From Pseudomonas phage EL: a stretch of DNA of 64,000 nucleotides. A model generated the notes under the pieces. It had not been told where the DNA came from. It made no database searches and was given only the letters and a program-made list of their open reading frames with translations. Location: sequence record AJ697969.1. One strand, written 5' to 3'. Shown piece after piece: positions 20,861 to 39,624 of this stretch. Both the position numbers and the translations under genes were made by a program. Numbering within the stretch: the stretch's first letter is position 1; each line of letters opens with the position of its first letter.

Positions 20861-20872
20861 AAACCTATATTA
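20861..20872 (+). promoter_or_regulatory. candidate phage promoter motif, AAACCTATATTA(CC)
   Basis: Contains TATATTAC about 35 nt after a hairpin and 44 nt before the ATG at 20916. Related motifs follow hairpins at 26606 and 39613. Confidence 0.3.
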
Positions 20873-20915
20873 CCGGCGTGATTATACCCAATGGATCATT
20901 TAGGAGATTCGGTTT

Positions 20916-21071
20916 ATGCATTACCAAGTGGTGTTTGAACAAGACCTATTGGGTAAAACCCATACACATGACACCGGTCTGTTCATTAACGGTGAATCCA
21001 AACGGTTTTTACCACGTTGTTGGATCATAACGAATCGGTGTTGTATGACGTGTACGACGGACACCTGGTGA
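20916..21071 (+). CDS. small leader ORF, 51 aa, overlapping the start of the next gene
   Basis: A canonical AGGAGA lies 8 nt before the ATG. The ORF ends inside the next ORF, which is in the -1 frame relative to it. Confidence 0.3.
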   Translation: MHYQVVFEQDLLGKTHTHDTGLFINGESKRFLPRCWIITNRCCMTCTTDTW

Positions 21072-21622
21072 TTATCCGTGAAACCAGCGAGGGGGAAGTG
21101 GAGGAATACCTAAGCGATCGGTCGTATGATTACCAGACGTTACCGTTGTTGGTGGTGATTGCGTGCTATAAGCACAATAAGCGGGTGGTGAAGATGGGGC
21201 GGAGTACCCATACCCTGATGTTCCACGACAACAAGGACGGGCGGTTTGAAGCCGTATTAGAAGCCGGTAAAGTCACCCTCCACGATAAGGAGGGGTTAGT
21301 CTTTACCCAAGACGGGGATTATTACCTGTCTCTACCGGAAGAACACGTGGCGAATATCATGCTGGAACGGTTGAATCACAGCTTGAAGTTCTTTGACGAG
21401 AAATACAAGGTTCGGTTTAAAATAGGACGGAACTATGCGTATTTCCCGTTAACGGAAGTCTTTGCAGACCCTGAGGTTCGGAATATACGACTGCGGTTGG
21501 ATAACCTAACGATTACTCAACAGAGCTGGGATCGTATTCGGGAGCAGCTCATGGACCTGTTGGAAGATTACACCCAACCTACTCGAACTGTTCGTATGGA
21601 TCTACCCATTAAGGGGGACTAA
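21017..21622 (+). CDS. hypothetical protein, 201 aa; start uncertain
   Basis: The ORF opens at 20996 and has only TTG (21017) or GTG (21038) starts without an RBS. It is either translationally coupled to, or a frameshift continuation of, the 20916 ORF. Confidence 0.5.
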   Translation: MLDHNESVLYDVYDGHLVIIRETSEGEVEEYLSDRSYDYQTLPLLVVIACYKHNKRVVKMGRSTHTLMFHDNKDGRFEAVLEAGKVTLHDKEGLVFTQDGDYYLSLPEEHVANIMLERLNHSLKFFDEKYKVRFKIGRNYAYFPLTEVFADPEVRNIRLRLDNLTITQQSWDRIREQLMDLLEDYTQPTRTVRMDLPIKGD

Positions 21623-21981
21623 TGGCGTATCAGGAATATGGATCTACGTTCGTTCACGACGGTAAAGTCTACCACCTCAATGACTTCCTCCGTCGAAGTG
21701 AAACACTCCCCGTTAAAACGGTTCCCTTAAAGGACTTTGAATGGCTCCTGGCGTATGCCGTTGAAGAGGATAAGGACAGGATTAAGCGAGCGGACTATTC
21801 CTTTCCGTTGTTGATTACGGAATGGGAAGGGGAGTGGGTGATCATTGATGGCTGGCACCGGTTCCTTAAAGCCCATTGGGATGGGCAATCCGCCTTGAAC
21901 GTTAAGGTCATTCCAACGGACTGGTTTAAAGGTAAAGGAAGGCCCTTTAAACTAAAGGGTTACCGTAATCGCGTTACATAA
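21622..21981 (+). CDS. ParB/Srx-fold (ParB-like nuclease domain) small protein, 119 aa
   Basis: Contains ...WVIIDGWHRFLKA..., which matches the ParB N-terminal/sulfiredoxin (V/I)DGxHR...A signature. TAATG overlap with the upstream gene. Confidence 0.4.
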   Translation: MAYQEYGSTFVHDGKVYHLNDFLRRSETLPVKTVPLKDFEWLLAYAVEEDKDRIKRADYSFPLLITEWEGEWVIIDGWHRFLKAHWDGQSALNVKVIPTDWFKGKGRPFKLKGYRNRVT

Positions 21982-21990
21982 CGTGACATA

Positions 21991-22026
21991 CCCCTACCCC
22001 CTAGCGCTCAGGCTAGGGGGTAGGGG
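21991..22026. terminator. bidirectional hairpin, CCCCTACCCCCTAGC/GCTAGGGGGTAGGGG
   Basis: A 15-bp perfect stem between convergent genes 21622-21981(+) and 22047-23579(-). Confidence 0.6.
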
Positions 22027-22046
22027 GTCTATTATTCATTTTGTCT

Positions 22047-23579
22047 TTACATGGCGTCCCAATCTTTCACGACATCACCATTCTCATTAAAGCGTTGTTG
22101 CAAAGACCGTCTAAAGGCGGGTTTACCATTAATGTCATGTACAAGCCCTAACACGGGATCAAGATCATAGATAAAGAACCGCTTCTCAGGTGAACACCCT
22201 TCACCCCGTTGTTTACCAATGGAACAGGTAAAGTAATTCTTCATGGACGTCTTCGCCACATGAATGGTAATGACACCATCCACTTCGTTGGTAATCTTCG
22301 TAGACGTTTCTGTCATTGACTTACCAGAGACTTCCCGAGCGAAGTAGACCTCAGACTCATCATCCAGTTCTTTTAGTAGTTTCTTAGCTTCAGGGCTCAA
22401 CTGGTGAGGTGTTAAGAAACAAATACCCCGCGCAATCATAAATGACCGGACAGTGCGGAACAGTAATTGAAGTTTATCGGACTTATTCTCCCCAGGGAGT
22501 TTATCGAAATTCTGCAACGCCAAGTAATCATACCCGTACAGAATGATCTCGTGACCTTTGAGTTCCAATTGCCGTACCCGAGCGAACATCTTATCCCGGT
22601 TGTCTTTATGGGCTTCAATCTGGTTAATCACCAGGTACCACCCATTCTTCCGGAAGCAATCCGCAATAGCGGTTACAATGTCTACGCTTTCAGTCACCTG
22701 AAAGTCCCGGTCTTCTTTGTACTTGGTGGTTACCGCCAGCTTGTAGATCCGACGAATCACCAGCTCCATGGCATCCTCAGCCGATTCATACAGGATCGTT
22801 GGAATCTTAGCCTTATTCCGCAGCATGGGTTTGTTGTACATCCCCGCTGAAGCAATCAGGTGAGCCATACCGAAAGACTTACCTCGGTTCGTCATGGCTT
22901 CTAGGAGGTACATCTTACTTCGACGTAATCCTCCATCTGGTTCCAATCCTTGATTGAGACCTTGAATACCGGTTTTAATGATCCCTTCTACACTGTTCTC
23001 CGTCTTCGCCATCTCGATGATATCGAGCATACTTTCCGGCGTGCCTGTATTGACGGAACTCACCACTTCGGATTGACGTTCCCCATACGCGTTATTCACC
23101 CGCTCTTGGATCAAATCAATCAGTTTAGCAAAGTCTTCGGGTTTGGTATCAACGAGGTCCTTATACAGGACTTCTTTCATAGCCTTCTTGAACTGCTTCT
23201 CGAAGACCTCATCTTCCATACTGGAACGAATCTCTGTGATCTGTTTATACACCAGACGACGAGACAGTTCCTCTGTTTCCAGGTCTTCCAATCCAACATT
23301 CACCGCATCCCTGAGACTGTCATCATTCTTGCAGAAGATCGCTACCCGCTGCATCAGCAACGATTTTATAAGTGGATCGTCATTGGACTGGTCCAGCAGC
23401 CAGCTGATTGAAGACCGGATGCTGTCCCTGACACGTCGGTCTTGTGACATCACATCGGGATTTGGGGCTGGGAGTTCTTCCAGTAAGTCTGTCAGTTCTT
23501 CGATCAGGTTAGTGTCTTTTAGTTTTTTGGCCTGATAAATTGCTGATAACAGTTTTACTAACACCAGCAAATCGTTCAT
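22047..23579 (-). CDS. DnaB-family replicative helicase (RecA-fold C-terminal domain), about 510 aa
   Basis: Walker A-like motif (LLEAMTNRGKSFGMAHLIASAG), a DnaB H3-like motif (IILYGYDYLALQN) and an H4-like motif (ICFLTPHQLS). Start set at the ATG at 23579 (MNDLL...), which has an AGGGG RBS. The ORF-track start at 23672 is a GTG that would overlap the divergent gene. Confidence 0.5.
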   Translation of the reverse strand: MNDLLVLVKLLSAIYQAKKLKDTNLIEELTDLLEELPAPNPDVMSQDRRVRDSIRSSISWLLDQSNDDPLIKSLLMQRVAIFCKNDDSLRDAVNVGLEDLETEELSRRLVYKQITEIRSSMEDEVFEKQFKKAMKEVLYKDLVDTKPEDFAKLIDLIQERVNNAYGERQSEVVSSVNTGTPESMLDIIEMAKTENSVEGIIKTGIQGLNQGLEPDGGLRRSKMYLLEAMTNRGKSFGMAHLIASAGMYNKPMLRNKAKIPTILYESAEDAMELVIRRIYKLAVTTKYKEDRDFQVTESVDIVTAIADCFRKNGWYLVINQIEAHKDNRDKMFARVRQLELKGHEIILYGYDYLALQNFDKLPGENKSDKLQLLFRTVRSFMIARGICFLTPHQLSPEAKKLLKELDDESEVYFAREVSGKSMTETSTKITNEVDGVITIHVAKTSMKNYFTCSIGKQRGEGCSPEKRFFIYDLDPVLGLVHDINGKPAFRRSLQQRFNENGDVVKDWDAM

Positions 23580-23604
23580 GCTAACCCCTGAGAGTGTAAA
23601 GTAG

Positions 23605-24150
23605 ATGATTTTTAAATACCCTAACGGTTTACCGTTCGAGTTGTATGTGGTAACCGGGGAGTTGGTTGACACCCTGGTGGCTCAATCCATCCCGCTCTGT
23701 GGATTGAAAGAAATTTCTGCATACCATGACAAGATCACCTTTGGTGAAATGGCTAACTTTGTAGCTTTGCAGTATGCGGCGGCCAAAGTCTTTGGTGTAG
23801 AAATGCCTGACCCTACGGCGTACTTTGGTCATGGGTATAACGCGGGGATGGTAGCCGAAGCATTTAATGGGGTGGACAGTGATGCAATAGCCACCCTCCT
23901 TCGTACCGCCAATCATTTCCGATCGACGGTTAATGGTCAAGTGATTCTCATTGGAGTCGAGGTAGGGGACCATAAAGCCACCGCTAGCTGGGAGAAACTT
24001 CAAGCCAAAACAATCTCAACCGCCGTATTGGAAACACTTTATGCAAGGGTCGGTTATTTGGAAAGTCATTTCGGTCCCGTACCGAAAGCAGGTTTAGGGG
24101 AATTGACTCTGGCTGAAGTGTTCAAGCTGATCCACCTTCAAAACCCCTGA
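23605..24150 (+). CDS. hypothetical protein, 181 aa
   Basis: ORF immediately upstream of the capsid-like gene, divergent from the helicase. Confidence 0.55.
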   Translation: MIFKYPNGLPFELYVVTGELVDTLVAQSIPLCGLKEISAYHDKITFGEMANFVALQYAAAKVFGVEMPDPTAYFGHGYNAGMVAEAFNGVDSDAIATLLRTANHFRSTVNGQVILIGVEVGDHKATASWEKLQAKTISTAVLETLYARVGYLESHFGPVPKAGLGELTLAEVFKLIHLQNP

Positions 24151-24190
24151 TTAAAAGGCTGCATGCATTTTATGTGCAGTTCTATTGCGC

Positions 24191-24206
24191 AACAAACATG
24201 TTTGTT
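24191..24206. promoter_or_regulatory. 16-bp perfect palindrome AACAAACATGTTTGTT upstream of the capsid-like gene
   Basis: Located 27 nt upstream of the ATG at 24233. It overlaps TTTGTTAC, a one-mismatch relative of the TTTATTAC motif seen at 4766 and 39591. Confidence 0.35.
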
Positions 24207-24232
24207 ACTCATCTCGAACAGGATTTATATCC

Positions 24233-26458
24233 ATGGCAAAGCAACTACGAACCTCCATTAATGGAGACAACAATCTTTTCAGCGATGTCTGCAAGTCCCT
24301 GGTAGCCGGTAGTCTTTCCAACATCACCGGTAACGAGAGCTTCGCAGACTTCCGTAGCACTCTTCAGAGCGCGGGCGGTCAGGAAGGTTTTCTGGTCAAC
24401 CGTCTGATTGGTCGTTCGCTCCCGAACGTCAGTGGTAACGAGAGCGCTGACCTGCACACGGGCTTCAACTCGGCTACTTACGACATCGTCCAAGGTATCC
24501 TGGAACGCAAGAGCCGTGACCTGATCCCCATGGACTGCGTTCGTATCTTCCAAGAAGCCGGTGATAACTTCGCCAAGGTGGAAGGTGCTGAAGGCTTCTC
24601 GATGCAGAACTTCGAGGGTCGTGAGCAAGAGATCCGTGCCGCCAACCTGACCCTGAACGCCCAGAGCCACCTTCAAACCGAAGGCGCTGAAGCCCTGTTC
24701 GCCACCGTCGGTGTGCGTTATCAAGACGAAGGCGCTGAGCTGATCGTTCGTGCAGCAGGTCTGGGTACCTACGCGTACGGCAACACCCCGTGGCAATCGG
24801 CTTCTGAACTGCGTCCGATCTTCGGCCTGCTCCGCAGTGGCGATATGTTCAAAGACGAAGCCCTGGCCGTCTACCCGGTATACCCGGACGATAACGCGAG
24901 CGAAGACCGTGCCTTCTTCGTGGCTGAGAGCGTCATCGCCCCGCGTCCTGTGAAATACGCGCAAGGTGATGCCTACGGTCGTGGTGAGCACGAAACCCAA
25001 ATGTTGGCGGTTCCGGTATCGATTCCGAACCTGCTCGCCCTGACCCAAGCGCCGGGCCAACGTCCGTGGAATTCCACCGACGAACTCGAATCCAACTCCA
25101 TCTCCGTGTCTCTCATCGCCGCAAGCGGTAAGCTGGACGGTACTGATATTTCGTTCTTCATCAAAACCGGTGCGATGTCGAACAACACCTTCGCACCAGC
25201 CAACAACGCCCAGACGAGCGATGAGCGCCAACTGAACCTGCAAGTCAAGCAACTGCCGGGCTTCTCGGTGAGCGACAAAGACGGCAAAGTGGTGGGTGAA
25301 ACCATTTTCGCCAGCTTCAAGTCCGCAGGTTACGAACCGCTGCTGGCCTTCCGCCTGACTGGTAGCTACCAACGCCAGACCAACGAGTTCAACCTGCAAC
25401 CGGGTACTGTGACCATCACCGCTGTTCGCAACATCACTACCGGTGTGGTCACCAAGATCGGCTTCGCTGACAGCACGGTTAAAGCCCTGATGCGCTCCTT
25501 CACCGAAGGTAAACTGATCGGTGCTATTACCACCCAGAACGTATCGAACACCAACCGCGGTAACTTCGGTTATCGGATTGAAGTGTACGATGCCAAGAAA
25601 CACCTGTCGGTGAAACGTCGTTCTCCGATCTCGGTGAAATACCCGATCTCGGCTGATGACGTCAACCAGGCCAGCCTGGACTTCGCACTGAGCCAGATGT
25701 CGGTGGTGATTAACAACCAATGCTCCGCTCACGCTTTCCAAGCGGCTGAGCAGCACCTCGAGTACGTCACCTCGATTACCGGTCAACCGGTGGTGGCCAA
25801 CGACCAAGGTTCGGAAGTGCTCGCGGGTCAGCACTTTGTAAGCCCGATCGCCATCAACCGTAGCTTCAAGCTGGTTGATGTGATCTCGGCTAACAGTTCT
25901 TCGGATGTGTTCGTGTCGGTGGCATCCGCCATTACCAACGAGATCGCTGATATCGTTGCGGCCCTGAACACCAAGTCCGGCTTGGCATCCATTGCGGAAT
26001 ACAGCACTGGTAATACCAAGAACGCCTGGACGGTGGTCGTCCATCAGAACTTGAGCCGTTTCATCTTCCGTTCGGGTGATGCACGGACCATTGGTCCGAT
26101 CAACAACCTGAAAGTGGTTGAAACCAACTTCGACAGCATGATCGGTAAGATGTACATCGTTCCGACCAACGATTCCAACAACGAAACCATTAACCCGCTG
26201 GCGGGTATTGGTGTTCTGGTATCGAAGGAGAACGTCGTTGTACAGGGTAACATCACGCGTGACAACAGCGACTTCGGTGTCGTGATGACCCTGCCGAGCT
26301 ACAAACACTGGCCGCTCAACGTGGTCATTGGTTCTCTGGTCATCGAAGATGCTGAAGACCTGCTGAGCGACAAAGGTCTCATCAACCAACTGGCCGTCAA
26401 ACGTGTCAAGGTTGAGAACATCGAGGATGCGAAACCCGACCCAAACGCCGGTCCGTGA
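24233..26458 (+). CDS. major capsid protein candidate (large, phiKZ-like size class), 741 aa
   Basis: Codons are strongly E. coli-optimal (Leu almost only CTG; CGT, CCG, AAC, GAC, TTC, ATC), unlike most of the window. The protein is 741 aa, the size of jumbo-phage capsid proteins. The N-terminal 170 aa are repetitive (SLSNITGNESFADF / SLPNVSGNESADL) and dense in S/A/G-x-E motifs, typical of protease-processed propeptides. No fold can be confirmed by eye. Confidence 0.5.
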   Translation: MAKQLRTSINGDNNLFSDVCKSLVAGSLSNITGNESFADFRSTLQSAGGQEGFLVNRLIGRSLPNVSGNESADLHTGFNSATYDIVQGILERKSRDLIPMDCVRIFQEAGDNFAKVEGAEGFSMQNFEGREQEIRAANLTLNAQSHLQTEGAEALFATVGVRYQDEGAELIVRAAGLGTYAYGNTPWQSASELRPIFGLLRSGDMFKDEALAVYPVYPDDNASEDRAFFVAESVIAPRPVKYAQGDAYGRGEHETQMLAVPVSIPNLLALTQAPGQRPWNSTDELESNSISVSLIAASGKLDGTDISFFIKTGAMSNNTFAPANNAQTSDERQLNLQVKQLPGFSVSDKDGKVVGETIFASFKSAGYEPLLAFRLTGSYQRQTNEFNLQPGTVTITAVRNITTGVVTKIGFADSTVKALMRSFTEGKLIGAITTQNVSNTNRGNFGYRIEVYDAKKHLSVKRRSPISVKYPISADDVNQASLDFALSQMSVVINNQCSAHAFQAAEQHLEYVTSITGQPVVANDQGSEVLAGQHFVSPIAINRSFKLVDVISANSSSDVFVSVASAITNEIADIVAALNTKSGLASIAEYSTGNTKNAWTVVVHQNLSRFIFRSGDARTIGPINNLKVVETNFDSMIGKMYIVPTNDSNNETINPLAGIGVLVSKENVVVQGNITRDNSDFGVVMTLPSYKHWPLNVVIGSLVIEDAEDLLSDKGLINQLAVKRVKVENIEDAKPDPNAGP

Positions 26459-26535
26459 GTCCTGCGAATTACGGGCGGCTTGAGTATCCCGAGTTGCCCT
26501 AGTAGGTACCTCACGGAAATTGCGTGTACCATTAG

Positions 26536-26569
26536 CCCTACCCACTCCCCTAACCGGGAGTGGGTAGGG
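26536..26569 (+). terminator. intrinsic terminator, CCCTACCCACTCCC/GGGAGTGGGTAGGG then TTATATTT
   Basis: Near-identical to the hairpin at 717-748. Sits 78 nt after the capsid-like gene's stop. Confidence 0.65.
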
Positions 26570-26605
26570 TTATATTTGCAGTTATACCGTTTATTGGAAT
26601 ATTTT

Positions 26606-26617
26606 AAACCTACATTA
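26606..26617 (+). promoter_or_regulatory. candidate phage promoter motif, AAACCTACATTA
   Basis: Located 37 nt after the terminator hairpin and 74 nt before the ATG at 26691. The flank TATTTTAAACCTAsATTAT is shared with 39605-39625. Confidence 0.3.
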
Positions 26618-26690
26618 TCCTTGGGTACAAGACAATAGGTTATCTGACCGCGCACCAGATGATCTTGACACTAACTTGAGGATCCTCACC

Positions 26691-27827
26691 ATGAATGACG
26701 TTTCACCCTACCGGCATTTCCGGCTGACTTATGATATCACCAATATGAGCAGCAAACAGATTATTGTCAAGGCGAAAGGAGGGTTGAGTTACCTTATTCG
26801 CAAACCACTAGAGGCTTCGTGGTATCCCGGGGCGATGATCGATATCAAATTCGATCGTCTGTATGTCGGTGATTTCAGTTTTGATAAGTCAGCAGCGCGG
26901 AGTAAATTCGATCGTCTGTTGATTGATAAGATCCAAGCTCACCTGAGCTTTGTGTCGAGCAAAGAGTCGCACGTGGACATTCGGCAGTATCATGACTTCG
27001 GCGTCACGATCAAACTGAACAGGGATGTGGTTGAAGACCTGGAAGGTGAACCGATCCACAGTGATATCCTCGGTATCACGTTGTATAACCGGGAAGAGAA
27101 TACCGGCGATCTTTATCCCCTGAATACGCCAGACTACACCCTCAATGACCTGATGAAATGGGGAATCGGTGAGAGTGATGAGCCGGGAGGTCTTCATTAC
27201 TACGTGTATCTGAACGATCCCCTGAGTGTTCAAAACCCGTTGTACACCAATGTCATGGGTAAAGCGGTAATGGTCCCTACGGTCAGGGAGATGAATAAAG
27301 ATCATGGGTTGTATGTGGGATTGGTCTGCGGTAATTCACTACCGAAGAAGCTATTCTACACCTTTGACCATCTCTGCGATGAAACCCTGGGTTTCCTGGG
27401 TATCTTTAAGACCAAAGCAGAATGTGAGATGGGAGGGAACACGGAACGGGCAATGACTGCCGAGAAGAAAGTGGTTGAACTGAATAAACAACTGAGTTCA
27501 GCCAACAACGAGATTTCCAAACTGAAGGACTTGGTAGACGAGAATGTCCGTAAGAGTGTTGAGTTGGGTATCGAGCTGACCCACCTCAAAAGTGCTCATC
27601 GGTTGGAACTCATGCAAGCGAGAAATGAACGTCAACTGGAGGTGAATCGGCTGCAAATCAACAATGATGCGACCAAAGTACGGAGTGAAATGGACAAGAC
27701 CTTGAGTAAGGCGAATCTGGAGTTCACCCGCCAGCGGGCCAGCGCTAACAACTGGGGAGAAGTGGCTAAGGCGGTTGGGGCTATTGCAACCGTGTTTGCT
27801 GCGGGGTATAAACTATGTACTTCCTGA
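26691..27827 (+). CDS. hypothetical protein with a C-terminal coiled coil and hydrophobic tail, 378 aa
   Basis: ATG at 26691 (MNDVSPY...) preceded by GAGGAT. The C-terminus AKAVGAIATVFAAGYKL is TM-like. Confidence 0.6.
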   Translation: MNDVSPYRHFRLTYDITNMSSKQIIVKAKGGLSYLIRKPLEASWYPGAMIDIKFDRLYVGDFSFDKSAARSKFDRLLIDKIQAHLSFVSSKESHVDIRQYHDFGVTIKLNRDVVEDLEGEPIHSDILGITLYNREENTGDLYPLNTPDYTLNDLMKWGIGESDEPGGLHYYVYLNDPLSVQNPLYTNVMGKAVMVPTVREMNKDHGLYVGLVCGNSLPKKLFYTFDHLCDETLGFLGIFKTKAECEMGGNTERAMTAEKKVVELNKQLSSANNEISKLKDLVDENVRKSVELGIELTHLKSAHRLELMQARNERQLEVNRLQINNDATKVRSEMDKTLSKANLEFTRQRASANNWGEVAKAVGAIATVFAAGYKLCTS

Positions 27828-27844
27828 TATGGTAGGTAGGTAGG

Positions 27845-29557
27845 ATGGACCGGCAACTCATTAAACACATTGAAAATTCCATGCCGAAGTTCAATAAGTT
27901 ACTGGTGGATGGATTTCATCAGAAGGAGTTTAGTAATGCGTTAGGAGTGTTCGATCATTCCATGAGGGCCATTCTGAAAAGTGTTGAGAAACGGGGTGTC
28001 TTTTACAAGAAAACCGTACGAGCTTCACCTCGGGAGTTCATTGACTACTTGATCAACAGCAGTCGTAAAGTCTTCGATGTCCATAAGGAAAGCTTGTATC
28101 CGGTTAAGATCTGGATCCAGTATAAGGACCGAGGGGGTAAGTTAACGGACTTTTACACCTACACGATGCTCCCGTATACGGATAAGTACGGGGATCTGTG
28201 GTTGAGGGGATCGTTGTATAACCCTCAGATCGTACTCGCTGAACAGGGTCTACCCGTAACGAAAGAGAACGCCTTGTTCGTGAAAGTGCTGGGTTTCAAG
28301 TTTAAGATTGGAATCGAGCATTTCAATTTCTGTCAAGTCTTTACCGACACAGGGATTGAGACCCATCGTCACACGGATATCAACCTGGCGGCTAACCGGT
28401 TCTACAGTCCAACCGAATCCCGGAAGATCAAGGACAGTAAGACCCCTGTTCCGTTGTTGGCGTGGTATATCTTTGCGGACATGGGCTTCAGTACGGCCAT
28501 GGAGGAATATGCGGAGTGTGACTTCCGTATAGGCTCTCTGGATGCGCTGCTTAACGAATGCAAGGCAGAAGACCGGTGGGAAGTCTTTACCGGTCCTAAG
28601 CGTGCTTCGGATAATAAACCTTCGTTAGGTGATTATGTCAGTTTGGACATCGGTATTGCGGTACGGAACAAGTCTAGCAGTCGTAAGGAACTGAGCGCAG
28701 TCGGGTTACAGTACAGCTGTGCTTTATTGTTCATTGCGAACTGTTGTTCGTCGTACTTTGATATTGAACGGTTGGATGATCCGGACTATTGGAAGCTGAT
28801 CATAGGGCGGTGTTCCGTTAAGGCGGGTGACAGTGACGAGTACATCATGCGTTTGATGTATGAGCACTTCGATTCCATTCGGGAGTACCTGGATGAAGAT
28901 TCGATTAAGAAGTTCGCTGCTAAATCGATCGTAGTGACCAATATGTTTGATCTGTTCAACTACATCATTGCGAACCGCAGTGAGATTGTCCAGACCACCG
29001 ACCGTGCGTCAGCGTTCAATAAAGACTTGGCCAGTTTGGAATTCACGCTGGACAGTCTGCTGACGTCTGCCAATAACTTCAAGCACGATATCAAGAACAA
29101 CTCGGAAATCAACCAGAAAAAGGTGGCGAGGTTCTTGACTCACAATTTCCCTATTAAGGAGATCGACAATGCACAATACGCCAACCTTATCCTGGAACCC
29201 ACCCCTACGGATAATCCGTTCGTAGACTACGGGTTGGGCTGCATGCCCCAACACAAGGTCTATACCGGTGGTGGTAAGCGTAAACGGGGTGACTTCGACA
29301 CGTCAGATAGCTCAACCTTTACCCACGCGTCGCTTCCCTTTGTTCATAGTTTTTTACGGGTTACGAATCCTAATCCTGATGCACGGGGATTCCTTAATCC
29401 AAGCATTTATCTGATCAATAATCGTACAACGGGCTTAGACCCTCAATTTAAAGAACTCTACGAACGAACAGATAAACGCCTCAAGAAAAGAGAACCATGG
29501 CCATGGCAAACATCCTCCGTCCATCCGGACAAGTCAACCGAGGAACCGTCTCAATAG
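27845..29557 (+). CDS. hypothetical protein, 570 aa
   Basis: Long ORF in the same operon. Confidence 0.65.
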   Translation: MDRQLIKHIENSMPKFNKLLVDGFHQKEFSNALGVFDHSMRAILKSVEKRGVFYKKTVRASPREFIDYLINSSRKVFDVHKESLYPVKIWIQYKDRGGKLTDFYTYTMLPYTDKYGDLWLRGSLYNPQIVLAEQGLPVTKENALFVKVLGFKFKIGIEHFNFCQVFTDTGIETHRHTDINLAANRFYSPTESRKIKDSKTPVPLLAWYIFADMGFSTAMEEYAECDFRIGSLDALLNECKAEDRWEVFTGPKRASDNKPSLGDYVSLDIGIAVRNKSSSRKELSAVGLQYSCALLFIANCCSSYFDIERLDDPDYWKLIIGRCSVKAGDSDEYIMRLMYEHFDSIREYLDEDSIKKFAAKSIVVTNMFDLFNYIIANRSEIVQTTDRASAFNKDLASLEFTLDSLLTSANNFKHDIKNNSEINQKKVARFLTHNFPIKEIDNAQYANLILEPTPTDNPFVDYGLGCMPQHKVYTGGGKRKRGDFDTSDSSTFTHASLPFVHSFLRVTNPNPDARGFLNPSIYLINNRTTGLDPQFKELYERTDKRLKKREPWPWQTSSVHPDKSTEEPSQ

Positions 29558-32397: not shown

Positions 32398-32471
32398 GTT
32401 CTGCCCCAAGGAGAAGGTTATCCCTTCTCCTCTTCTTTTCAGTAACCCGCTCAGCCAGGAAGGTGTTTATT

Positions 32472-32636: not shown

Positions 32637-32726
32637 AGAACCCACCCCCCGCTTCCTTGTCCTGTTTAAGAGGGATGAGGAGGCGGGTTCTTTACGTCTC
32701 TTTCATTTTTCACATAGGGAAATACC

Positions 32727-33158
32727 ATGCTAACGCCAGATGAAGCGAAGAAACGTCGGGTAAGAGTGGCTGAAATCTTTAGTCTGATTTCGGAGGCTAA
32801 TCAGCTTCTGGTTAAGGTCTCAGCCACCGCGAATGCTAACAGGAGTGAGGAGATGTTTGCGTTATCCATGTCTCTCCTGGAAGAGGCGGACACCAAGCTG
32901 AATGCGTACAAAAAGGAATTCCCCAATTGTCTCTCCTTGAAGTACAACCGTTGGATGCAAGTCGGGGTGAATTCTGAGGGTGGGGTGAGTAATAAACAAG
33001 GGCTTCCTCAACCCCCTCTCTTGACTGAAGACAATCAGCTCTCCCCTGAGTGGGTGACTTGGTACAGTCAGGTTATGGGGTATTCCCATTCCCATGCCTT
33101 GGAGGTGGGTGAACTTCTGTTGAATGCGTATCAGAACCTTCCTCCCTCCGAAGTGTAA
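32727..33158 (+). CDS. hypothetical protein, 143 aa
   Basis: ORF with an upstream GGGAAATACC sequence. A terminator hairpin follows at 33175. Confidence 0.55.
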   Translation: MLTPDEAKKRRVRVAEIFSLISEANQLLVKVSATANANRSEEMFALSMSLLEEADTKLNAYKKEFPNCLSLKYNRWMQVGVNSEGGVSNKQGLPQPPLLTEDNQLSPEWVTWYSQVMGYSHSHALEVGELLLNAYQNLPPSEV

Positions 33159-33174
33159 AGGATTAACGGCAAAC

Positions 33175-33197
33175 AGTCTCCCCCCTTAGGGGAGACT
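33175..33197 (+). terminator. hairpin, AGTCTCCCC-CCTTA-GGGGAGACT plus TTTCTTG
   Basis: A 9-bp perfect stem. Confidence 0.5.
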
Positions 33198-33213
33198 TTC
33201 TTGAGAAAGACGT

Positions 33214-33465
33214 ATGTTTAGAATGAATAAGGGTTGTTACCCTACCGGAATAAATCCTAATGGAAAGTTTCTGAGTCAAGAGGAATTGTGGAAACTCCCC
33301 AATGGGACTTATGTAACCTCCCCTTCGCACCATCATCACGTCTATCAACACGCCCGTCGTGTTGAAGTTCGAGATGGTCAATGCTGGCTGGTCACTGATC
33401 CCAGGTATATCTATTCCCTTGAAGACTTCTTTAAATACAACCTGCTCTACAGGAAAACCGCATGA
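33214..33465 (+). CDS. hypothetical protein, 83 aa
   Basis: Plus-strand ORF consistent with the local orientation. The overlapping minus-strand ORF 33163-33549 is rejected. Confidence 0.45.
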   Translation: MFRMNKGCYPTGINPNGKFLSQEELWKLPNGTYVTSPSHHHHVYQHARRVEVRDGQCWLVTDPRYIYSLEDFFKYNLLYRKTA

Positions 33466-33596
33466 AAAAGACCTGGATGTTGATGTCTCGTAGGAGACAT
33501 TCACCGAGCAGTATGGGATTGACCTAGGGAGTAAACTGGGCTCATTCATCGTTGATTAAAAACCTTTTGTCATTAATCCACTTATAGGACACCGTT

Positions 33597-34064
33597 ATGT
33601 CGAAGAAAATGCCGCCGGACTTCCGTAAACTGCACCTGGAAGCCTTGTACACCTACCTGAATGAAACCACGGGCGCGTGTGTCATCCTGGTTAACACCGA
33701 CGCCGGCCCTGAAGTGAAAGAAATCGGTCAAGGGAACCCCAGCGTCTTCTTCAACATCGGAGGGTTCGCGGTGAAGTACCTTCATTTCCATGAGGAGTAC
33801 GTTCATTTCGAATGCCGTTGCCAGGGGAAGGTATACGAGCTCTTCATCAAGTATGAAGATATCTTGGGTGTGCGGTATAACAGAGACTTGATTTACCTGG
33901 GTGGGGTGTGCCGAATAGTAGGTCAGGATGAAGACGGTCGGTTGATGCTCGCCCCTGGTGAAATCGCTCCTCCAGAACAGGATGATAAGAAAGAATCCTC
34001 CGTCCCCAAACCTCAGAACGGACACACCTCTCCGTTCAAGGTCATTGAAGGCGGTAAAGACTAA
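33597..34064 (+). CDS. hypothetical protein, 155 aa
   Basis: ORF followed by the hairpin CCGGTAGG-GATAA-CCTACCGG at 34084-34104. Confidence 0.55.
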   Translation: MSKKMPPDFRKLHLEALYTYLNETTGACVILVNTDAGPEVKEIGQGNPSVFFNIGGFAVKYLHFHEEYVHFECRCQGKVYELFIKYEDILGVRYNRDLIYLGGVCRIVGQDEDGRLMLAPGEIAPPEQDDKKESSVPKPQNGHTSPFKVIEGGKD

Positions 34065-34189
34065 CCCCTCACTATCAATACCCCCGGTAGGGATAACCTA
34101 CCGGTGGTTAAATTATTCTGTTGAGTGTATCTAATACGTACATTGACCAGAATCATTTAGAGTTTCATAAACACCTGAGGTAATCCAAA

Positions 34190-34672
34190 ATGCTACCGAT
34201 TAAATCACGGCTACAAGAAATGATCATCAACGCCCAACCCCTCCCCGGCGTTGTGGATGACATTTACAAAGGCTACGAGGAAGTTAGGGTGTTCTTCTCC
34301 AACTTCGATCGGGTAATCACTCAACTCCCTTTCGATAAGGATATTCTCAATCACCTGCCCCGGGGTGAAGCCAAGACGGAGGACTTCTTCTTTCTCCACA
34401 CCATCTACCAGGAGCAGAACAAAGGCGCCATCCATGGCTTCGGAGAAGGGTATTCAGGGAACATTCGTTTCCGGATTAAGATCGTACGGAACACTAAAGG
34501 GGTCATTGCAGGGTTGACCGTAGGGACTCTGGGCTGGGGAATGAAAGATCTGGAACGGGATTTCAAGAACAAACACCTGTTGCATGGGGGTGTGGATTAC
34601 AAAGACGAACTCCTGGGTAAAGTGGTTCGTCATATTGAATTGGTCAAACTCTTCTACATCGAAGACATTTAA
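34190..34672 (+). CDS. hypothetical protein, 160 aa
   Basis: ORF preceded by GAGG. Confidence 0.55.
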   Translation: MLPIKSRLQEMIINAQPLPGVVDDIYKGYEEVRVFFSNFDRVITQLPFDKDILNHLPRGEAKTEDFFFLHTIYQEQNKGAIHGFGEGYSGNIRFRIKIVRNTKGVIAGLTVGTLGWGMKDLERDFKNKHLLHGGVDYKDELLGKVVRHIELVKLFYIEDI

Positions 34673-34697
34673 CATCTTTCAGAAGGAGTAACCCCCC

Positions 34698-35021
34698 ATG
34701 GTAACAGTTCGTAAGGAAGGTAAAGAACGGTCTCCTCTGTCGAGTCCCATCGTAGGCGAACGGGATTCCGTTGATTTCCATAACAACAAAGAACACCTGG
34801 AGAATGGGACGTATCGAGTTATCGAGTACGACGGGGAAATCAATTATTGTGTGTTAGACTATCTCGTTGAATCTTGGTACAGCGAGGAAGAACACATGGA
34901 ATTCCTCGATAATCTACACATGGACCATCTGGCCGAGAGAATAGGCGAGCCATACTGCGAAGACTTGGGAGAACCGTTCACCCAAGTCCTACATGACAAT
35001 TTCAGTGACCTTTTGACTTAA
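34698..35021 (+). CDS. hypothetical acidic protein, 107 aa
   Basis: ORF 25 nt after the previous stop. Confidence 0.5.
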   Translation: MVTVRKEGKERSPLSSPIVGERDSVDFHNNKEHLENGTYRVIEYDGEINYCVLDYLVESWYSEEEHMEFLDNLHMDHLAERIGEPYCEDLGEPFTQVLHDNFSDLLT

Positions 35022-35038
35022 CAAGACGAGGGGGTGGT

Positions 35039-35824
35039 ATGAACACGTTTTACATCATTCAAGTCGACCAACGTTCCACTTCCCACCCGGGAACCATCAC
35101 TCAGTATTACGCCGAGGATCCCTCTTCTCGTGGTTATCCCGATTTCAGCAAGTCCTGGATGGACTGTAGCACTTTCCACAGCCTCGAAAGTGCTACTGAA
35201 GTCATTAACCGGATGCTCACTGATAAGAACACTCGCTTCGGTGATGGTTCGGTCTATCTTCCCCTCACATTCCGGATACTGCGTCGTGATTACAACGCAC
35301 CTGTTCCCGGTACGAAATACGAGTTCGATCTCTCCATTGTCGAGTTCTCCTACACCGATCCCTCCGACTTGAAAGTCAAAACAGTTGATCGCTGGGGAGT
35401 CGACTTCATATGGGGTGGAGGAGATAAACTCGCCAGGACTTTCTACCGCGTCGAAACGAATCCCGATCAACCCAACATGCCCTACTTGCCGGGTAAGAAT
35501 GAACCAAGTCTCTTCTACCCCAAGGCATTGGAGGGCGCTCACCCGTGGGTGTACTGGTATATCCGCAGTCATGAACTTGAGTTCACTTCCGCTTCAGTTA
35601 AAACTGCTTTGGAAGAGAAAGACAAGGTCATCGGTAAAATCAGTAACCAAAGTTCCAATGTGGAGCTTTACGACGAGATGTTTCCTAAAGCAGGCGACCG
35701 GGTTGCCGTGGGGGATCTAGTACTCCTGGGGGATGTTCTAGCTCTTCGTAATAAGAACTCCGATCTCACCCTGGAAGAAATCCACCAACAAAAATTGTCT
35801 CGTCGCGTTTCGAATAAACAATAA
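35039..35824 (+). CDS. hypothetical protein, 261 aa; paralog of 36853-37659
   Basis: Shares blocks with the 268-aa protein: VDRWGVDF/VDRWDVEF, GKNEPSLFYP/GDNEPSVFYC, GAHPWVYWYIRSHELEFT/GAHPWIHWYIITHELEFT. Confidence 0.65.
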   Translation: MNTFYIIQVDQRSTSHPGTITQYYAEDPSSRGYPDFSKSWMDCSTFHSLESATEVINRMLTDKNTRFGDGSVYLPLTFRILRRDYNAPVPGTKYEFDLSIVEFSYTDPSDLKVKTVDRWGVDFIWGGGDKLARTFYRVETNPDQPNMPYLPGKNEPSLFYPKALEGAHPWVYWYIRSHELEFTSASVKTALEEKDKVIGKISNQSSNVELYDEMFPKAGDRVAVGDLVLLGDVLALRNKNSDLTLEEIHQQKLSRRVSNKQ

Positions 35825-35836
35825 AGACAGTCAGTC

Positions 35837-35862
35837 AACAGAGGCCCTGTGAGGCCTCTGTT
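35837..35862 (+). terminator. intrinsic terminator, AACAGAGGCC-CTGTGA-GGCCTCTGTT plus GGTATTTATTTC
   Basis: A 10-bp stem followed by a T-rich run. Confidence 0.6.
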
Positions 35863-35893
35863 GGTATTTATTTCAGTAGTCAAGGAATTTGTA

Positions 35894-36358
35894 ATGGCTA
35901 GAAAAACCCTGTGTATGTTGATTCGCCATCACCAGTACGCGCTGGTAACCAATGACATCCAAAAGAGCGACTTCTTTTACACCTGCCCGTTTGAATCGAC
36001 CGTTGAAGGCCAACCGATTCTCTGTGCGGTGTTCTACAAGAAACCCAACCCCGAACGCATGAAAGCTGCGTATTCGCTGACGACTCTCCCCTGTCATTTG
36101 ACCCTTGAAGGATGGCAGAGCCTGATTGTGGATGCAGAACAACGCGCTATCCTCGTTACTCCCAGGCGGATCTATGATTTCCGTGGGGAGGAAATCAACG
36201 TGTGTAATGGAGAGAATAAGGGGTTTACCTTTGGAGCGGATGAATTCGTTCACCTTTTTGGTAAGTACCTCGACGTTAACGTTCCGTTGGGCGCTCTCTA
36301 CGCCGACAAGCAAATTGGTGAAGCATTTGAAGTTATCGCTGTAAAACCCCGTAACTAG
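35894..36358 (+). CDS. hypothetical protein, 154 aa
   Basis: ATG at 35894 (MARKTL...) preceded by AAGGAA 7 nt upstream. The track start at 35849 lies inside the terminator hairpin. Confidence 0.55.
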   Translation: MARKTLCMLIRHHQYALVTNDIQKSDFFYTCPFESTVEGQPILCAVFYKKPNPERMKAAYSLTTLPCHLTLEGWQSLIVDAEQRAILVTPRRIYDFRGEEINVCNGENKGFTFGADEFVHLFGKYLDVNVPLGALYADKQIGEAFEVIAVKPRN

Positions 36359-36433
36359 GAGGAGTGTTATGGGTACCCAAACGATCAGTTCGGCGATTAA
36401 CCCACAACCTTCCATTTCGTATTCGGGTGATTT

Positions 36434-36799
36434 ATGGAAAGAACGATCAAAGAAGTATTTGAATCGATGGCGAAGAATCTTCAAGATATCCAGCGCCTGA
36501 AGGGTCCTAACGCAAGGGTGTGTATTACCTTAGAGATTGACGGCGAAATAGTCGATTTCATCCTGCATCAGGGATATAAACATCAACCCACCCTCTTAAC
36601 TGCGATTATTATCTCAATCCGTATTCAAAATGTTGAAGGTATCCATCCCCAGGGAGTCATCATGATGTACAATGATGGCGAATTGTCGATGGGAATCTAC
36701 AAAGATGCTAAGTACGGCGGCGAAACGTTGGAAGGTGTGCTTCGTGTCGCCGAAGAATACATGAGTGAAGTCGAAGAAACCCCCCACACCCTCCATTGA
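36434..36799 (+). CDS. hypothetical protein, 121 aa
   Basis: ORF with a weak RBS. It is overlapped upstream by a 43-aa ORF at 36369 that carries a strong TAGGAGGAG RBS, in a -1 frame relation. Confidence 0.5.
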   Translation: MERTIKEVFESMAKNLQDIQRLKGPNARVCITLEIDGEIVDFILHQGYKHQPTLLTAIIISIRIQNVEGIHPQGVIMMYNDGELSMGIYKDAKYGGETLEGVLRVAEEYMSEVEETPHTLH

Positions 36800-36852
36800 T
36801 GGAATCCTCTACCCCGCGTCCTACAACCCTACTCCCTTAAAAGGAAGTCATC

Positions 36853-37659
36853 ATGTCTATTTCCTACATCATCCGGATTGATTCCCGTCTCAATAACCAA
36901 GGAGATGCCGTTACACGCTTCTATAACGTTCATGGTGGGGCGTTTGACCATCCCCGCTATATGACCCACTGGTACGACGCAAAAGCCTTCACAACGTTCC
37001 CTGAAGCCGTTAAAGTGGTTAAACGGATCATTGATGAGGAACCGGGGTTGTATTCCAAAGATCCTTACCGGGCGTTGTACGACCTCTGCTCCGCAGGGTT
37101 GGATCGCCCTATAGACCCGGATGGGTCCTACACCTTCGTGATTTACATTATCCGTTGCAATTCGGAGGATCCTTCGGACCCTCGAATGGAAGTGGTGGAT
37201 CGTTGGGATGTGGAGTTCTATCGGAATAAAACCCTACCCGACGGTCAGTTCAGTTCTATCGTATACCACGCGGAGGATAACCCCGAGGAGAGTGACCCCG
37301 GACGCTTCTACGTCCCAGGGGACAACGAACCCAGTGTCTTCTACTGTGACCGATTGGGTGGCGCGCATCCTTGGATCCATTGGTACATCATTACCCATGA
37401 GCTCGAATTCACCCACGAGAACATCGAATTCGCTAAGGATGAGAAAACCCGGGTAATCGAACAACTGCTGGAACAACAGAGCTGGGTGCCGTACTACAGT
37501 GAGAAATTTCCTCTCACTTCCCGAGAAATCGTTGTTCACCAACCCCTGCTGTTGGGGTATGTGTTGAGTAAGCGTAATGACAATCCTTCCCTGTCGTTGG
37601 AAGAGGTCCATTACCAAGAAATCACCCGGCGTAACACCAAACCGTCTGCTCATCACTGA
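36853..37659 (+). CDS. hypothetical protein, 268 aa; paralog of 35039-35824
   Basis: See the paralog evidence at 35039-35824. AAAAGGAAG precedes the ATG. Confidence 0.65.
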   Translation: MSISYIIRIDSRLNNQGDAVTRFYNVHGGAFDHPRYMTHWYDAKAFTTFPEAVKVVKRIIDEEPGLYSKDPYRALYDLCSAGLDRPIDPDGSYTFVIYIIRCNSEDPSDPRMEVVDRWDVEFYRNKTLPDGQFSSIVYHAEDNPEESDPGRFYVPGDNEPSVFYCDRLGGAHPWIHWYIITHELEFTHENIEFAKDEKTRVIEQLLEQQSWVPYYSEKFPLTSREIVVHQPLLLGYVLSKRNDNPSLSLEEVHYQEITRRNTKPSAHH

Positions 37660-37698
37660 GCATTCCGTTAATCCTTATTCCACCGAGGGAGAATGAAC

Positions 37699-38040
37699 AT
37701 GAGAATGGTCCATTGGGCTCGATTGGTTAAAGAGTGCCTCCAACTTCAAGCCGTCAGCGATGATCGCTACCTGGGGGTCTGCTCAGGGTTGAGTTTGTTG
37801 TACCACAAGTACTTCCTGGCCAACGATCTCCCCCTCGAAGCCAACTACCCGGTGCTTACAGCCGCCTTTAAGGAACGGGTAGACCTGGGCCCACCGGCTA
37901 AGGAATCGGTTATGAGCGCTGAACACGCCCAAGAACTGGTTGAAACGGTGGAGGAGACCCTTCGTTACTACGTCAAGTTCTATGCGTGGGGTTGTAACCT
38001 GAAGGCTTCCTTCTGGGCGGAGGTAAAGGGTCAGCATTAA
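37699..38040 (+). CDS. hypothetical protein, 113 aa
   Basis: GAGGGAGA RBS. The second ATG at 37699 has optimal spacing. Confidence 0.55.
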   Translation: MRMVHWARLVKECLQLQAVSDDRYLGVCSGLSLLYHKYFLANDLPLEANYPVLTAAFKERVDLGPPAKESVMSAEHAQELVETVEETLRYYVKFYAWGCNLKASFWAEVKGQH

Positions 38041-38097
38041 TCTTCCACATCCGTTCCAATCTATGTCGGGCACTCTTTTTCTAGAAGAGGTAACCCT

Positions 38098-38289
38098 ATG
38101 CCAAGTGTATCACGTAAACAAGCCAACCTTATGCGAGACGCCGCCCACAGCGCTGAGTTCGCTAAGAAGGTGGGTATCGATCACGAGGTGGCTAAGCATT
38201 GGTACGAGGAAGACAAGAAGGTGGGGTGGTTCGACCCCAGTTCCAATAAAGCGGAATCTTCGAAAAAGACCCCTTCCAAGTCCAGTTAG
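38098..38289 (+). CDS. small conserved-type protein, 63 aa (resembles the DUF3008-like KQxxxM...FAKKVG family)
   Basis: MPSVSRKQANLMRDAAHSAEFAKKVGIDHEVAKHW... with a lysine/serine-rich tail. The family assignment is from memory and tentative. Confidence 0.4.
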   Translation: MPSVSRKQANLMRDAAHSAEFAKKVGIDHEVAKHWYEEDKKVGWFDPSSNKAESSKKTPSKSS

Positions 38290-38477
38290 TCGTTTCCGTA
38301 ATCTTTCCCTTGTAAGGGGTGCTCTCGTAACAGTAACCCTTAGCGGTTACTCGCAGTCGTCCGTGGCCGAGAGTATAAACAGTACAGGTCTATCTATTCC
38401 TTGTGATGGGGTGAATAGGTATGACAATGGCGAACGGACCCCTTTCGATTCAAGTGTAACACTGGAAGAAAAACACA

Positions 38478-38939
38478 ATGAATAAATACTGTGATCTTTA
38501 TGACGTGTTGGAACGGTTTGTTGGGCTGGTTAAACCTGTTGAATTTGGACTCCAACTGGGTTTTAAGGACCATCAGATTATCGGGGAGTTGAGATCTGTT
38601 GGTCTGCACTTGCCGCGTCAATCGGGTAAAACGACCCTGTTGTCCAAGTGGTGTTCGAAACACCCTGACGAAGTGTTCATCGTACACGGGTCTTCTCCAT
38701 GGTTAGAGGCTTTCAAAAGACTTTCAAACCTTCCCGAACTCCCCCCTTGGGTTTCGATCTCCAAAATACGAGACAACCAACCCTTGCTTACGGATCACTC
38801 GACCCTGAAGAAGATTAAATACGTGGTCGTCTATGGTTCGTCGGTTATTTTCTCCTACTGTGGACTCAAGCGTAAAGACTTCAACCAATGGGTGGCTGAC
38901 ACCTTTGGAACTGAAATCGTGGTGATCCATTTAGGTTAA
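38478..38939 (+). CDS. small P-loop NTPase, 153 aa
   Basis: Walker A motif LPRQSGKTTLL at residues 45-55. Ends 6 nt before the tRNA. Confidence 0.5.
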   Translation: MNKYCDLYDVLERFVGLVKPVEFGLQLGFKDHQIIGELRSVGLHLPRQSGKTTLLSKWCSKHPDEVFIVHGSSPWLEAFKRLSNLPELPPWVSISKIRDNQPLLTDHSTLKKIKYVVVYGSSVIFSYCGLKRKDFNQWVADTFGTEIVVIHLG

Positions 38940-38945
38940 GTTTAC

Positions 38946-39021
38946 TCCGTGATAGCTCAGTAGGTAGAGCAACTGTTTCGTAAACAGTAGGTCCCGGGTT
39001 CGAACCCTGGTCACGGAACCA
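38946..39021 (+). tRNA. tRNA-Thr(CGU), 76 nt, CCA encoded
   Basis: Manual cloverleaf: acceptor TCCGTGA/TCACGGA; D-arm GCTC-AGTAGGTA-GAGC; anticodon stem ACTGT/ACAGT with loop TTCGTAA (U33, anticodon CGT, A37); 5-nt variable loop; T-arm CCGGG-TTCGAAC-CCTGG (one G-U pair); discriminator A; CCA. Confidence 0.85.
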
Positions 39022-39164
39022 AACATCGTTACCCCAAAGACTGGGACACACATGCTCGGCACCACCCTCCCCCAGATGCCCTGCGCCGTCCCGCTCCGCC
39101 AGCCATCCTGTTCTCTTCTCTCTTCCAGGGTGGACCGCGGCTTCTTGACAGGGGTGACGGTGTA

Positions 39165-39201
39165 CCTGTTCCCTACCTTTCTCAGAGGGGTGGGGAACAG
39201 G
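39165..39201 (+). terminator. hairpin, CCTGTTCCC...GGGAACAGG plus ACCTTTTCTTTATCC
   Basis: A 9-bp stem with a long loop and a T-rich tail, 145 nt downstream of the tRNA. Confidence 0.45.
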
Positions 39202-39238
39202 ACCTTTTCTTTATCCGCTATGTGCAGAGGATACCGTC

Positions 39239-39535
39239 ATGTCGTTCATTATAAAGGTCATGCGAGAGGACTGTGGGAATGGCACCTCCCGTGACTATGA
39301 AGGCATTATTGTGGGTCAGGGGGATCGGTTTGCTATCTCTTGGGATCCGCATAAAGAACAGCGGGAGCTCACGGTCGAGTTTGCTGATGGGAGAACCTTG
39401 CTCCGGGTGATTGATGGGGATCTTTACGTGGTGAATGCGGACGGTAAGACCATTTCCGGTACCCTCAAGAATAAGCCCTTGCTCCCCGGTACTTCCCACT
39501 CGAACCCCCGAGACAAACTCTCTTCTAAGCTCTAA
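39239..39535 (+). CDS. hypothetical protein, 98 aa
   Basis: ORF followed by a terminator hairpin at 39557. Confidence 0.5.
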   Translation: MSFIIKVMREDCGNGTSRDYEGIIVGQGDRFAISWDPHKEQRELTVEFADGRTLLRVIDGDLYVVNADGKTISGTLKNKPLLPGTSHSNPRDKLSSKL

Positions 39536-39556
39536 CCCGTAAACACCGTGTAAACA

Positions 39557-39589
39557 CCCTCCTACCTCCTTTACAGGGAGGTAGGAGGG
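39557..39589 (+). terminator. intrinsic terminator, CCCTCCTACCTCC-TTTACA-GGGAGGTAGGAGGG plus TTTATTAC
   Basis: A 13-bp stem. The downstream TTTATTAC and TATTTTAAACCTAGATTAT motifs follow. Confidence 0.6.
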
Positions 39590-39612
39590 TTTATTACGGT
39601 ATAGCGTATTTT

Positions 39613-39624
39613 AAACCTAGATTA
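39613..39624 (+). promoter_or_regulatory. candidate phage promoter motif, AAACCTAGATTA
   Basis: Located 24 nt after the hairpin and 31 nt before the ATG at 39655. Same extended motif as 26601-26620. Confidence 0.3.

Follow-up and report, generated by a model that had tools for sequence, protein, structure and literature searches.

A recurrent motif at gene boundaries of Pseudomonas phage EL as a probable early promoter of the virion RNA polymerase

What is the function of the motif AAACCTAnATTA, which recurs at gene boundaries in a stretch of 64,000 nucleotides (nt) from Pseudomonas phage EL (sequence record AJ697969.1; the whole stretch is called the window below)? In the form AAACCTANATTA it is found exactly three times, at 20861, 26606 and 39613, always on the + strand. 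A preliminary description of the window had listed these three copies, had placed them just after hairpins of the CCTACC type and ahead of gene starts, and had proposed them as candidate phage promoters. In our analysis all three copies were present at these positions, each 22-33 nt past a perfect GC-rich CCTACC/GGTAGG hairpin and 42-85 nt before a start codon (ATG 20916, 26691 and 39655). The promoter proposal is supported by the distribution of the motif, by the genes downstream of it, by a geometry shared with phage phiKZ, by the conservation of its position in relatives and by the published EL consensus. With a probability of about 0.85, we regard the motif as an early promoter which is read by the multisubunit RNA polymerase packaged in the virion and from which transcription starts at or next to a conserved G, termed G+19 here. 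The observation is not new; the motif is the already published EL promoter, which has been in the literature since 2005.

Distribution, consensus and conservation of the motif

The three exact copies of AAACCTANATTA compare with a mean of 0.01 in shuffled sequences, and none of 100 shuffles reached three. This demonstrates that the motif is real and not a product of chance. No further match to AAACCTANATTA occurs in the window even if one mismatch is allowed. In an Rfam scan of the whole window the sole match was a transfer RNA (tRNA) at 38946-39018; thus the motif is not explained by any known RNA element.

Genome-wide tests were based on the complete genome of phage HHBS47_1 (210,836 base pairs (bp), 237 coding sequences), which is collinear with the window. 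Bases 20000-28000 of the window share 97-98.7% nucleotide identity with jumbo phages of P. aeruginosa of ~210 kilobases (kb), namely phiRU, HHBS47_1, MIZ-Pa99 and others. Among the products of HHBS47_1 are a GroEL chaperonin, a nuclear shell protein, the tubulin PhuZ and many RNA-polymerase beta-like fragments, a combination known from phage EL and the phiKZ group (the relatives have ~211 kb and encode GroEL). The exact 12-mer is present eight times in this genome. All eight copies are on the + strand and seven are intergenic; the eighth lies inside a dubious 'hypothetical' open reading frame (ORF) of 165 nt that also spans a hairpin. In an unbiased k-mer enrichment, AACCTACA, ACCTACAT and TAAACCTA were the 8-mers most enriched in upstream intergenic DNA. 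Hence the enrichment of the motif between genes, which the preliminary description had named as a check of its proposal, holds across the genome.

Starting from the exact 12-mer sites of HHBS47_1, a weight matrix was iterated until convergence, and both strands were scored. The matrix detected 22 sites in HHBS47_1, each scoring >20. All 22 occupy gene boundaries on the + strand and are aimed at a + strand gene. There is a clear gap below them, with zero sites scoring 12-20 on either strand and the top minus-strand site scoring 10-12. The matrix parts real sites from background without ambiguity and is useful for annotation. When the window was scanned, four sites were obtained, at 20861, 26606, 31951 and 39613 (P1 to P4 in Table 1). 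The initial list of instances was therefore correct for three copies and incomplete for one: the copy at 31951 (AGATCTAAATAATCAGGGTGAA), which has the top matrix score of the window (36.3), had been missed because its core differs at four positions.

The full element comprises ~36 nt with a consensus of about Y-A-N5-TTTy-ARRYCTAYATyAYY-N4-TG-w-a. All offsets are counted from the first A of AAACCTA, which is position 0. From 5' to 3' the element contains Y-A at -11/-10 (A-10 in 19/22 copies), a T-tract at -4 to -2 (T in 18, 14 and 19 of the 22 copies, respectively), A-R-R-Y at 0 to +3, and an AT-rich core, TAyATyAY, at +5 to +12. C+4, A+8, T+9, A+11 and G+19 are invariant in the 22 HHBS47_1 copies. 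A0, T+5 and A+6 are each found in 21 copies and T+18 in 16, and matrix positions -14 to -12 are almost uninformative. With A-10, the mostly conserved T+18 and the invariant G+19, the element extends beyond the published 19-mer.

Over the 22 sites, G+19 is separated from the next start codon by 3-162 nt, in most cases by 16-100 nt. A strong hairpin is located 18-41 nt upstream of 11 of these sites; the other 11 have no hairpin. Some annotations of HHBS47_1 conflict with the sites. CDS0079 (L001 20740-20904) overlaps a terminator hairpin together with a promoter copy, and CDS0024 (L002 14788-14952) overlaps a promoter copy; these two small ORFs, annotated as 'hypothetical protein', are probably not genes. 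Likewise, the annotated start at 151899, 2 nt 5' of a predicted transcription start, is probably wrong.

The 36-nt architecture is not confined to cultivated phages and recurs in many uncultivated jumbo-phage contigs of 224-266 kb, with lineage-specific differences at few positions. When IMG/VR was scanned for TTTYAAACCTAYATTAY, 119 matches to the 17-mer were obtained. About half of them were chance matches and were ignored; these were in unrelated contigs, had low extended scores and were not accompanied by homologous proteins. Many matches were in 224-266-kb contigs, several of which are distant relatives as judged by protein comparison. In five of these (L014, L047, L099, L104 and L114) the capsid protein is 57-67% identical to that of this phage and the product of the next gene ~40%, and the motif is found between these two genes, which is the position of P2. 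The spacer downstream of the capsid gene is poorly conserved in the alignment of the five relatives and this phage (53% mean column identity); within it the block TTTyAAACCTACATTAT is invariant, and G+19 is kept in five of the six sequences. The hairpin of P2 is retained in the relatives with different stem sequences, and in 6 of 12 pairs both sides have changed, i.e. the changes are compensatory. L014 and L114 have positional homologues of P3, located after the same gene. In L023, 94 nt separate the motif from the downstream gene for a GroEL homologue (40% identical).

The polymerase that reads the motif

In phiKZ, the virion RNA polymerase, which is injected, transcribes from 28-32 early promoters (Ceyssens 2014, Wicke 2020, Putzeys 2024). 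Published work describes these as an extended -10 box, AT-rich and centred near -10, plus a T-rich motif upstream of -19. If the EL motif acts as a promoter, as we infer, its polymerase, its timing and its exact start site can be proposed by homology with phiKZ. A multisubunit RNA polymerase would be carried in the capsid, enter the cell along with the DNA, bind the element without a host sigma factor and initiate at or next to G+19. With this G as the start, the AT-rich core would occupy about -14 to -7 and the T-tract about -23 to -21, a geometry that fits the published description of the phiKZ early promoters. Each copy would open a rightward early transcription unit, often just past the hairpin that would terminate the unit before it. 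The early units would include subunits of the second, non-virion polymerase, which would then transcribe the middle and late genes.

The identity of the downstream genes bears directly on the question of which polymerase is involved. The non-virion RNA polymerase of phiKZ (PDB 7OGP) has PHIKZ055, 071/073, 074 and 123 among its subunits. In HHBS47_1 the site at 14932 is followed by the nuclear shell gene and then by the PHIKZ055 homologue, and the site at 29933 has the homologues of PHIKZ071 and PHIKZ074 downstream. Together with the operon of the PHIKZ123 homologue, three operons for non-virion polymerase subunits are thus preceded by copies of the motif: PHIKZ055 (through the shell gene), PHIKZ071/074 and PHIKZ123. 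The non-virion polymerase cannot make its own first transcripts. Hence the promoters of its three subunit operons have to be read by something that is present at injection. The PhuZ and GroEL genes are also found downstream of copies, and not one of the 22 copies is directly in front of a structural-gene block.

This distribution is the main obstacle to a different assignment, in which the motif would be a middle or late promoter read by the non-virion polymerase. Both phage polymerases are phage-encoded and independent of sigma factors, the early timing in EL-like phages is itself deduced, and the phiKZ shell gene, among others, is transcribed in several contexts; in these respects a promoter for the non-virion enzyme would be conceivable. 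Yet such a promoter could not provide the first transcripts of the operons that encode the enzyme, and a middle or late promoter is difficult to reconcile with the absence of copies directly before structural genes. Moreover, the published middle and late motifs of phiKZ are different, with a weak AT-rich motif at -24 and TATG at the start, and a separate element of the TATG type (ATTTTATGTGyAG) upstream of the capsid gene fits the existence of two promoter classes. We therefore consider the assignment to the non-virion polymerase improbable.

Slightly more improbable still is a host promoter of the sigma70 type, with TAyATT as the -10 box, that is read by the Pseudomonas RNA polymerase. TAyATT agrees with TATAAT at four to five of six positions depending on Y, a start at G+19 would be 8 nt past the hexamer and thus in the usual sigma70 range, and one weak sigma70-like match (9/12) overlaps P3. 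However, there is neither a conserved -35 element at the right spacing (this would fall on the nearly uninformative matrix positions -14 to -12) nor a TGn extended -10. The preliminary description had seen no sigma70-like -35/-10 pairs at these boundaries, and our counts agree with this: in 20001-40000, 14 sigma70-like sites were found against 19.5 expected, which is no enrichment, and they do not overlap systematically with the copies. Outside the part that resembles a -10 box, conserved C+4 and, relative to the proposed start, the T-tract at about -22 and the A at about -29 have no counterpart in sigma70 promoters. In addition, infection by the phiKZ group is published to be resistant to rifampicin, and the extended motif also occurs in jumbo phages of other hosts, e.g. 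Klebsiella phage N1M2.

T4-type promoter-early stem-loop cassettes are the model for a further alternative, in which hairpin and motif form a terminator-promoter cassette for recombination or mobility, or in which the motif is the binding site of a regulatory or DNA-handling protein and not simply a promoter. A hairpin accompanies half of the copies at a rather constant spacing (18-41 nt), CTACC/GGTAG stems occur in about a third of the hairpins, and the genes flanking these cassettes are small and variable between relatives, but the other half lack a hairpin, the stems vary between copies and relatives and so offer no long shared recombination substrate, and promoter function is the simpler account of the strict co-orientation with genes and of the architecture shared with the mapped phiKZ early promoters, so that we give this alternative hardly any weight.

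Some points weigh against an early promoter of the virion polymerase as well. A literature search on Elvirus transcriptomics returned no 5'-end or expression data for EL-like phages. The EL consensus is quoted second-hand, and the position of the phiKZ start site is taken from review-level statements. In the block of small genes at 32000-39500 several hairpins are not followed by a copy of the motif, and the motif alone does not explain the expression of all units there. Finally, since the core resembles the -10 hexamer of sigma70 (TAyATT), some use by the host polymerase is conceivable.

As a tentative idea, which we would call doubtful, covariation between promoter and virion-polymerase sequences across the 224-266-kb contigs could reveal which sigma-less polymerase subunit reads the motif and help to predict early regulons in uncultured phages that form a nucleus. 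In a weaker form, the cassettes of hairpin and promoter could bound exchangeable modules of early genes.

Window copies and neighbouring elements

The four copies, the hairpins before them and the genes after them are listed in Table 1. For annotation, their value is that four starts of early transcription units can be placed in the window, one of which would drive a non-virion RNA polymerase subunit.

Table 1. Copies of the motif in the window with adjacent hairpins and genes (positions are those of the window)
Feature	Position	Strand	Details
Hairpin before P1	20798..20828	+	CTCCCTACCTAAGC-CGA-GCTTAGGTAGGGGG; 14-bp stem; tail TGTTAT
P1	20847..20882	+	core AAACCTATATTA 20861-20872, exact match; predicted start G20880; matrix score 28.0
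First gene after P1	20916..21622	+	ATG 20916; hypothetical protein of 235 amino acids (aa) in HHBS47_1
Hairpin between major capsid gene and P2	26533..26572	+	17-bp stem, then TTAT..TGCA
P2	26592..26627	+	core AAACCTACATTA 26606-26617; predicted start G26625; matrix score 35.9
First gene of P2 operon	26691..27827	+	ATG 26691; hypothetical, phrog_27591
Second gene of P2 operon	27845..29557	+	PHIKZ123 homologue, non-virion RNA polymerase subunit
Hairpin before P3	31879..31910	+	ACCTACCCTAGTGG-ATCT-CCACTAGGGTAGGT; tail ATTCCTTATT; CCTACC type
P3	31937..31972	+	core AGATCTAAATAA 31951-31962, then TCAGGGTGAA; predicted start G31970
First gene after P3	32041..32397	+	118-aa hypothetical protein; heads block of small + strand genes
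Hairpin and tail before P4	39556..39598	+	hairpin 39556-39590; 16-bp stem; tail TTATTACG
P4	39599..39634	+	core AAACCTAGATTA 39613-39624; predicted start G39632; matrix score 29.3
First gene after P4	39655..40191	+	ATG 39655; 178-aa hypothetical protein, phrog_24977

P1 is the weakest copy of the window and has a degraded T-tract (AACTC). In the gene downstream of it, a T-run near 21006 reads TTTTT in the window and TTTTTT in HHBS47_1, and this deletion of 1 nt shifts the reading frame. Either a homopolymer sequencing error or a genuine frameshift could explain it. The product of the second gene of the P2 operon was assigned by its match to chain E of PDB 7OGP (E = 2.3e-6) and by phrog_2943, 'polymerase'. 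Concerning other polymerase genes, aa 245-313 of the PHIKZ074 homologue of HHBS47_1 (L002 32361-35459; 1032 aa) form an insert with a match to mini-inteins of the DnaB/gp41-1 type, and HNH endonuclease genes adjoin other polymerase fragments in the same genome. The block of small + strand genes also contains a tRNA-Thr (anticodon CGT; 38946-39021, + strand), ~590 nt 5' of P4.

All four hairpins of the window copies are GC-rich stem-loops with a TTAT-type tail; in the P2 hairpin the stem ends in GGGTTA, which is followed by TATTTGCA. Throughout HHBS47_1, ~60 intergenic loci with long (10-19 bp) perfect GC-rich hairpins were listed, and the examples in the window include 21991-22026. This listing was relaxed, as perfect stems combined with an exact TTAT under-count the terminators. 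By eye, about a third of the HHBS47_1 hairpins have a CTACC/GGTAG stem, which we judge to be far above chance. Their tails are TTAT-like and not long T-runs.

Three further sequences had been put forward as related elements, and in our analysis none of them belongs to the family. The TTTATTAC at 39591 begins right where the hairpin (39556-39590) ends and matches the 'hairpin + TTAT' tail of phiKZ; it is the tail of a predicted terminator and not a promoter element. A similar tail, CTTTATTACGC, follows another hairpin of HHBS47_1 at 8614-8647. The occurrence of TTTATTAC near 4766, in a divergent spacer of 33 nt, has a matrix score <8 and its GTG 2 nt out of register; the invariant C+4 is missing, as are A0 and A+6, which are almost invariant in the family. 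TTTGTTAC near 24200 likewise scores <8, below the threshold, and belongs to a palindrome that precedes the capsid gene.

A more plausible promoter of the capsid gene than TTTGTTAC may be a different element, ATTTTATGTGCAG, at 24166-24178 on the + strand, ~60 nt upstream of the ATG of the major capsid gene. It is conserved as ATTTTATGTGyAG in L014, L047 and L114. It resembles the TATG start of the phiKZ late promoters and is thus a candidate late promoter for the non-virion polymerase. In the form ATTTTATG this candidate is located in the window at 24168-24174 (+ strand) and at 53987-53993 (- strand). In HHBS47_1 there are 12 copies of TTTTATG; seven are intergenic, and five of these lie 43-78 nt before a gene start. 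The palindrome, ACAAACATGTTTGT, is found at ~24190-24205 (+ strand), downstream of the candidate late promoter and upstream of the capsid start codon. L014 and L047 retain it as a palindrome whose centre has changed (ACAAATATATTTGT), and it is not clearly present in L114. It may be a hairpin in the 5' untranslated region or an operator.

Comparison with published promoters and terminators

Comparison with the published consensus sequences of the phiKZ family, another check that had been suggested at the outset, led directly to EL itself. Table 2 of Lewis et al. 2020 (PMC7058600), citing Hertveldt et al. 2005 (J Mol Biol 354:536), gives WTTTYAAACCTACATTATY as the predicted EL promoter. This is the same sequence as the window motif, and nothing essential differs. 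P2 matches the 19-nt consensus at 19/19 positions, P4 at 18/19, and P1 and P3 at 15/19 each. Degenerate, functional-looking members such as AGATCTAAATAA would escape the published 19-mer.

For phiKZ the predicted promoter is TATATTAC (Lewis et al. 2020, PMC7058600). The preliminary description had recognised this core in the first EL copy. It is indeed exact there, and only there; the feature shared by the family is TAyATyAY and not TATATTAC. Within phiKZ 1-50000, seven + strand sites of TATATTAC were inspected. TTTA or TTTG is present 5 nt upstream in six of them, and TG is present exactly 5 nt downstream in all seven. When the EL matrix was run on phiKZ, it recovered sites ahead of PHIKZ036, PHIKZ053 and the shell gene PHIKZ054. 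Thus the EL motif and the phiKZ early promoters have in common the TAyATyAY core, a T-tract ~9 nt before it and TG 5 nt after it. They also share the sites before the shell gene and other early genes, the bias to one strand and the frequent position after terminators of the hairpin + TTAT type. There are differences as well. In EL the invariant C+4 and the near-invariant T+5 give ..CCTA.. or ..TCTA.. before the core, whereas the bases at this place are variable in phiKZ. The EL genome has ~50% GC and that of phiKZ 37%, so that the motif stands out more in EL. The starts were mapped experimentally in phiKZ, whereas those of EL are predicted from sequence.

The likeness extends to the terminators. 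The conserved intrinsic terminator motif of phiKZ is BCCYCCCCHWWDGGGRRGGBYTTATKYYGT (Putzeys 2024). The EL hairpins, which are predicted terminators, resemble it in their long GC-rich stems, their loops of 3-6 nt and their tails of the TTAT type without a long U-run; the tail TGTTAT of the P1 hairpin is one example. The EL stems are longer (12-19 bp) and often of the form CCCTACC/GGTAGGG, in contrast to CCYCCCC/GGGRRGG in phiKZ.

Promoters predicted for other members of the group are listed in the same source (Lewis et al. 2020, PMC7058600): BSHAWWWWWTTTYARRYAKATATTATYWWADTG for OBP (Cornelissen 2012), TBYAWWWWWTTTCARRYAKATATTATYWAAGTGWA for Klebsiella phage N1M2 and TTAWTAVAA_HYWTTTRARR_BTATATTACDWHDGTG for 201phi2-1. 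All three sequences have the same A-N5-TTTY-ARRY...ATATTAY-N4/5-TG layout as the EL motif. Over 33-35 nt this layout can be written as T-B-Y-A-W5-TTTC-ARRY-..-ATATTAT-Y-W-A-A-G-T-G-W-A, and its counterparts in EL are Y-A at -11/-10, TTTy, ARRY, TAyATTAYY and gTGaa at +17 to +21. Besides the hosts and the genome sizes, the phages differ at +4/+5, where OBP and N1M2 have A-K and EL has C-T.

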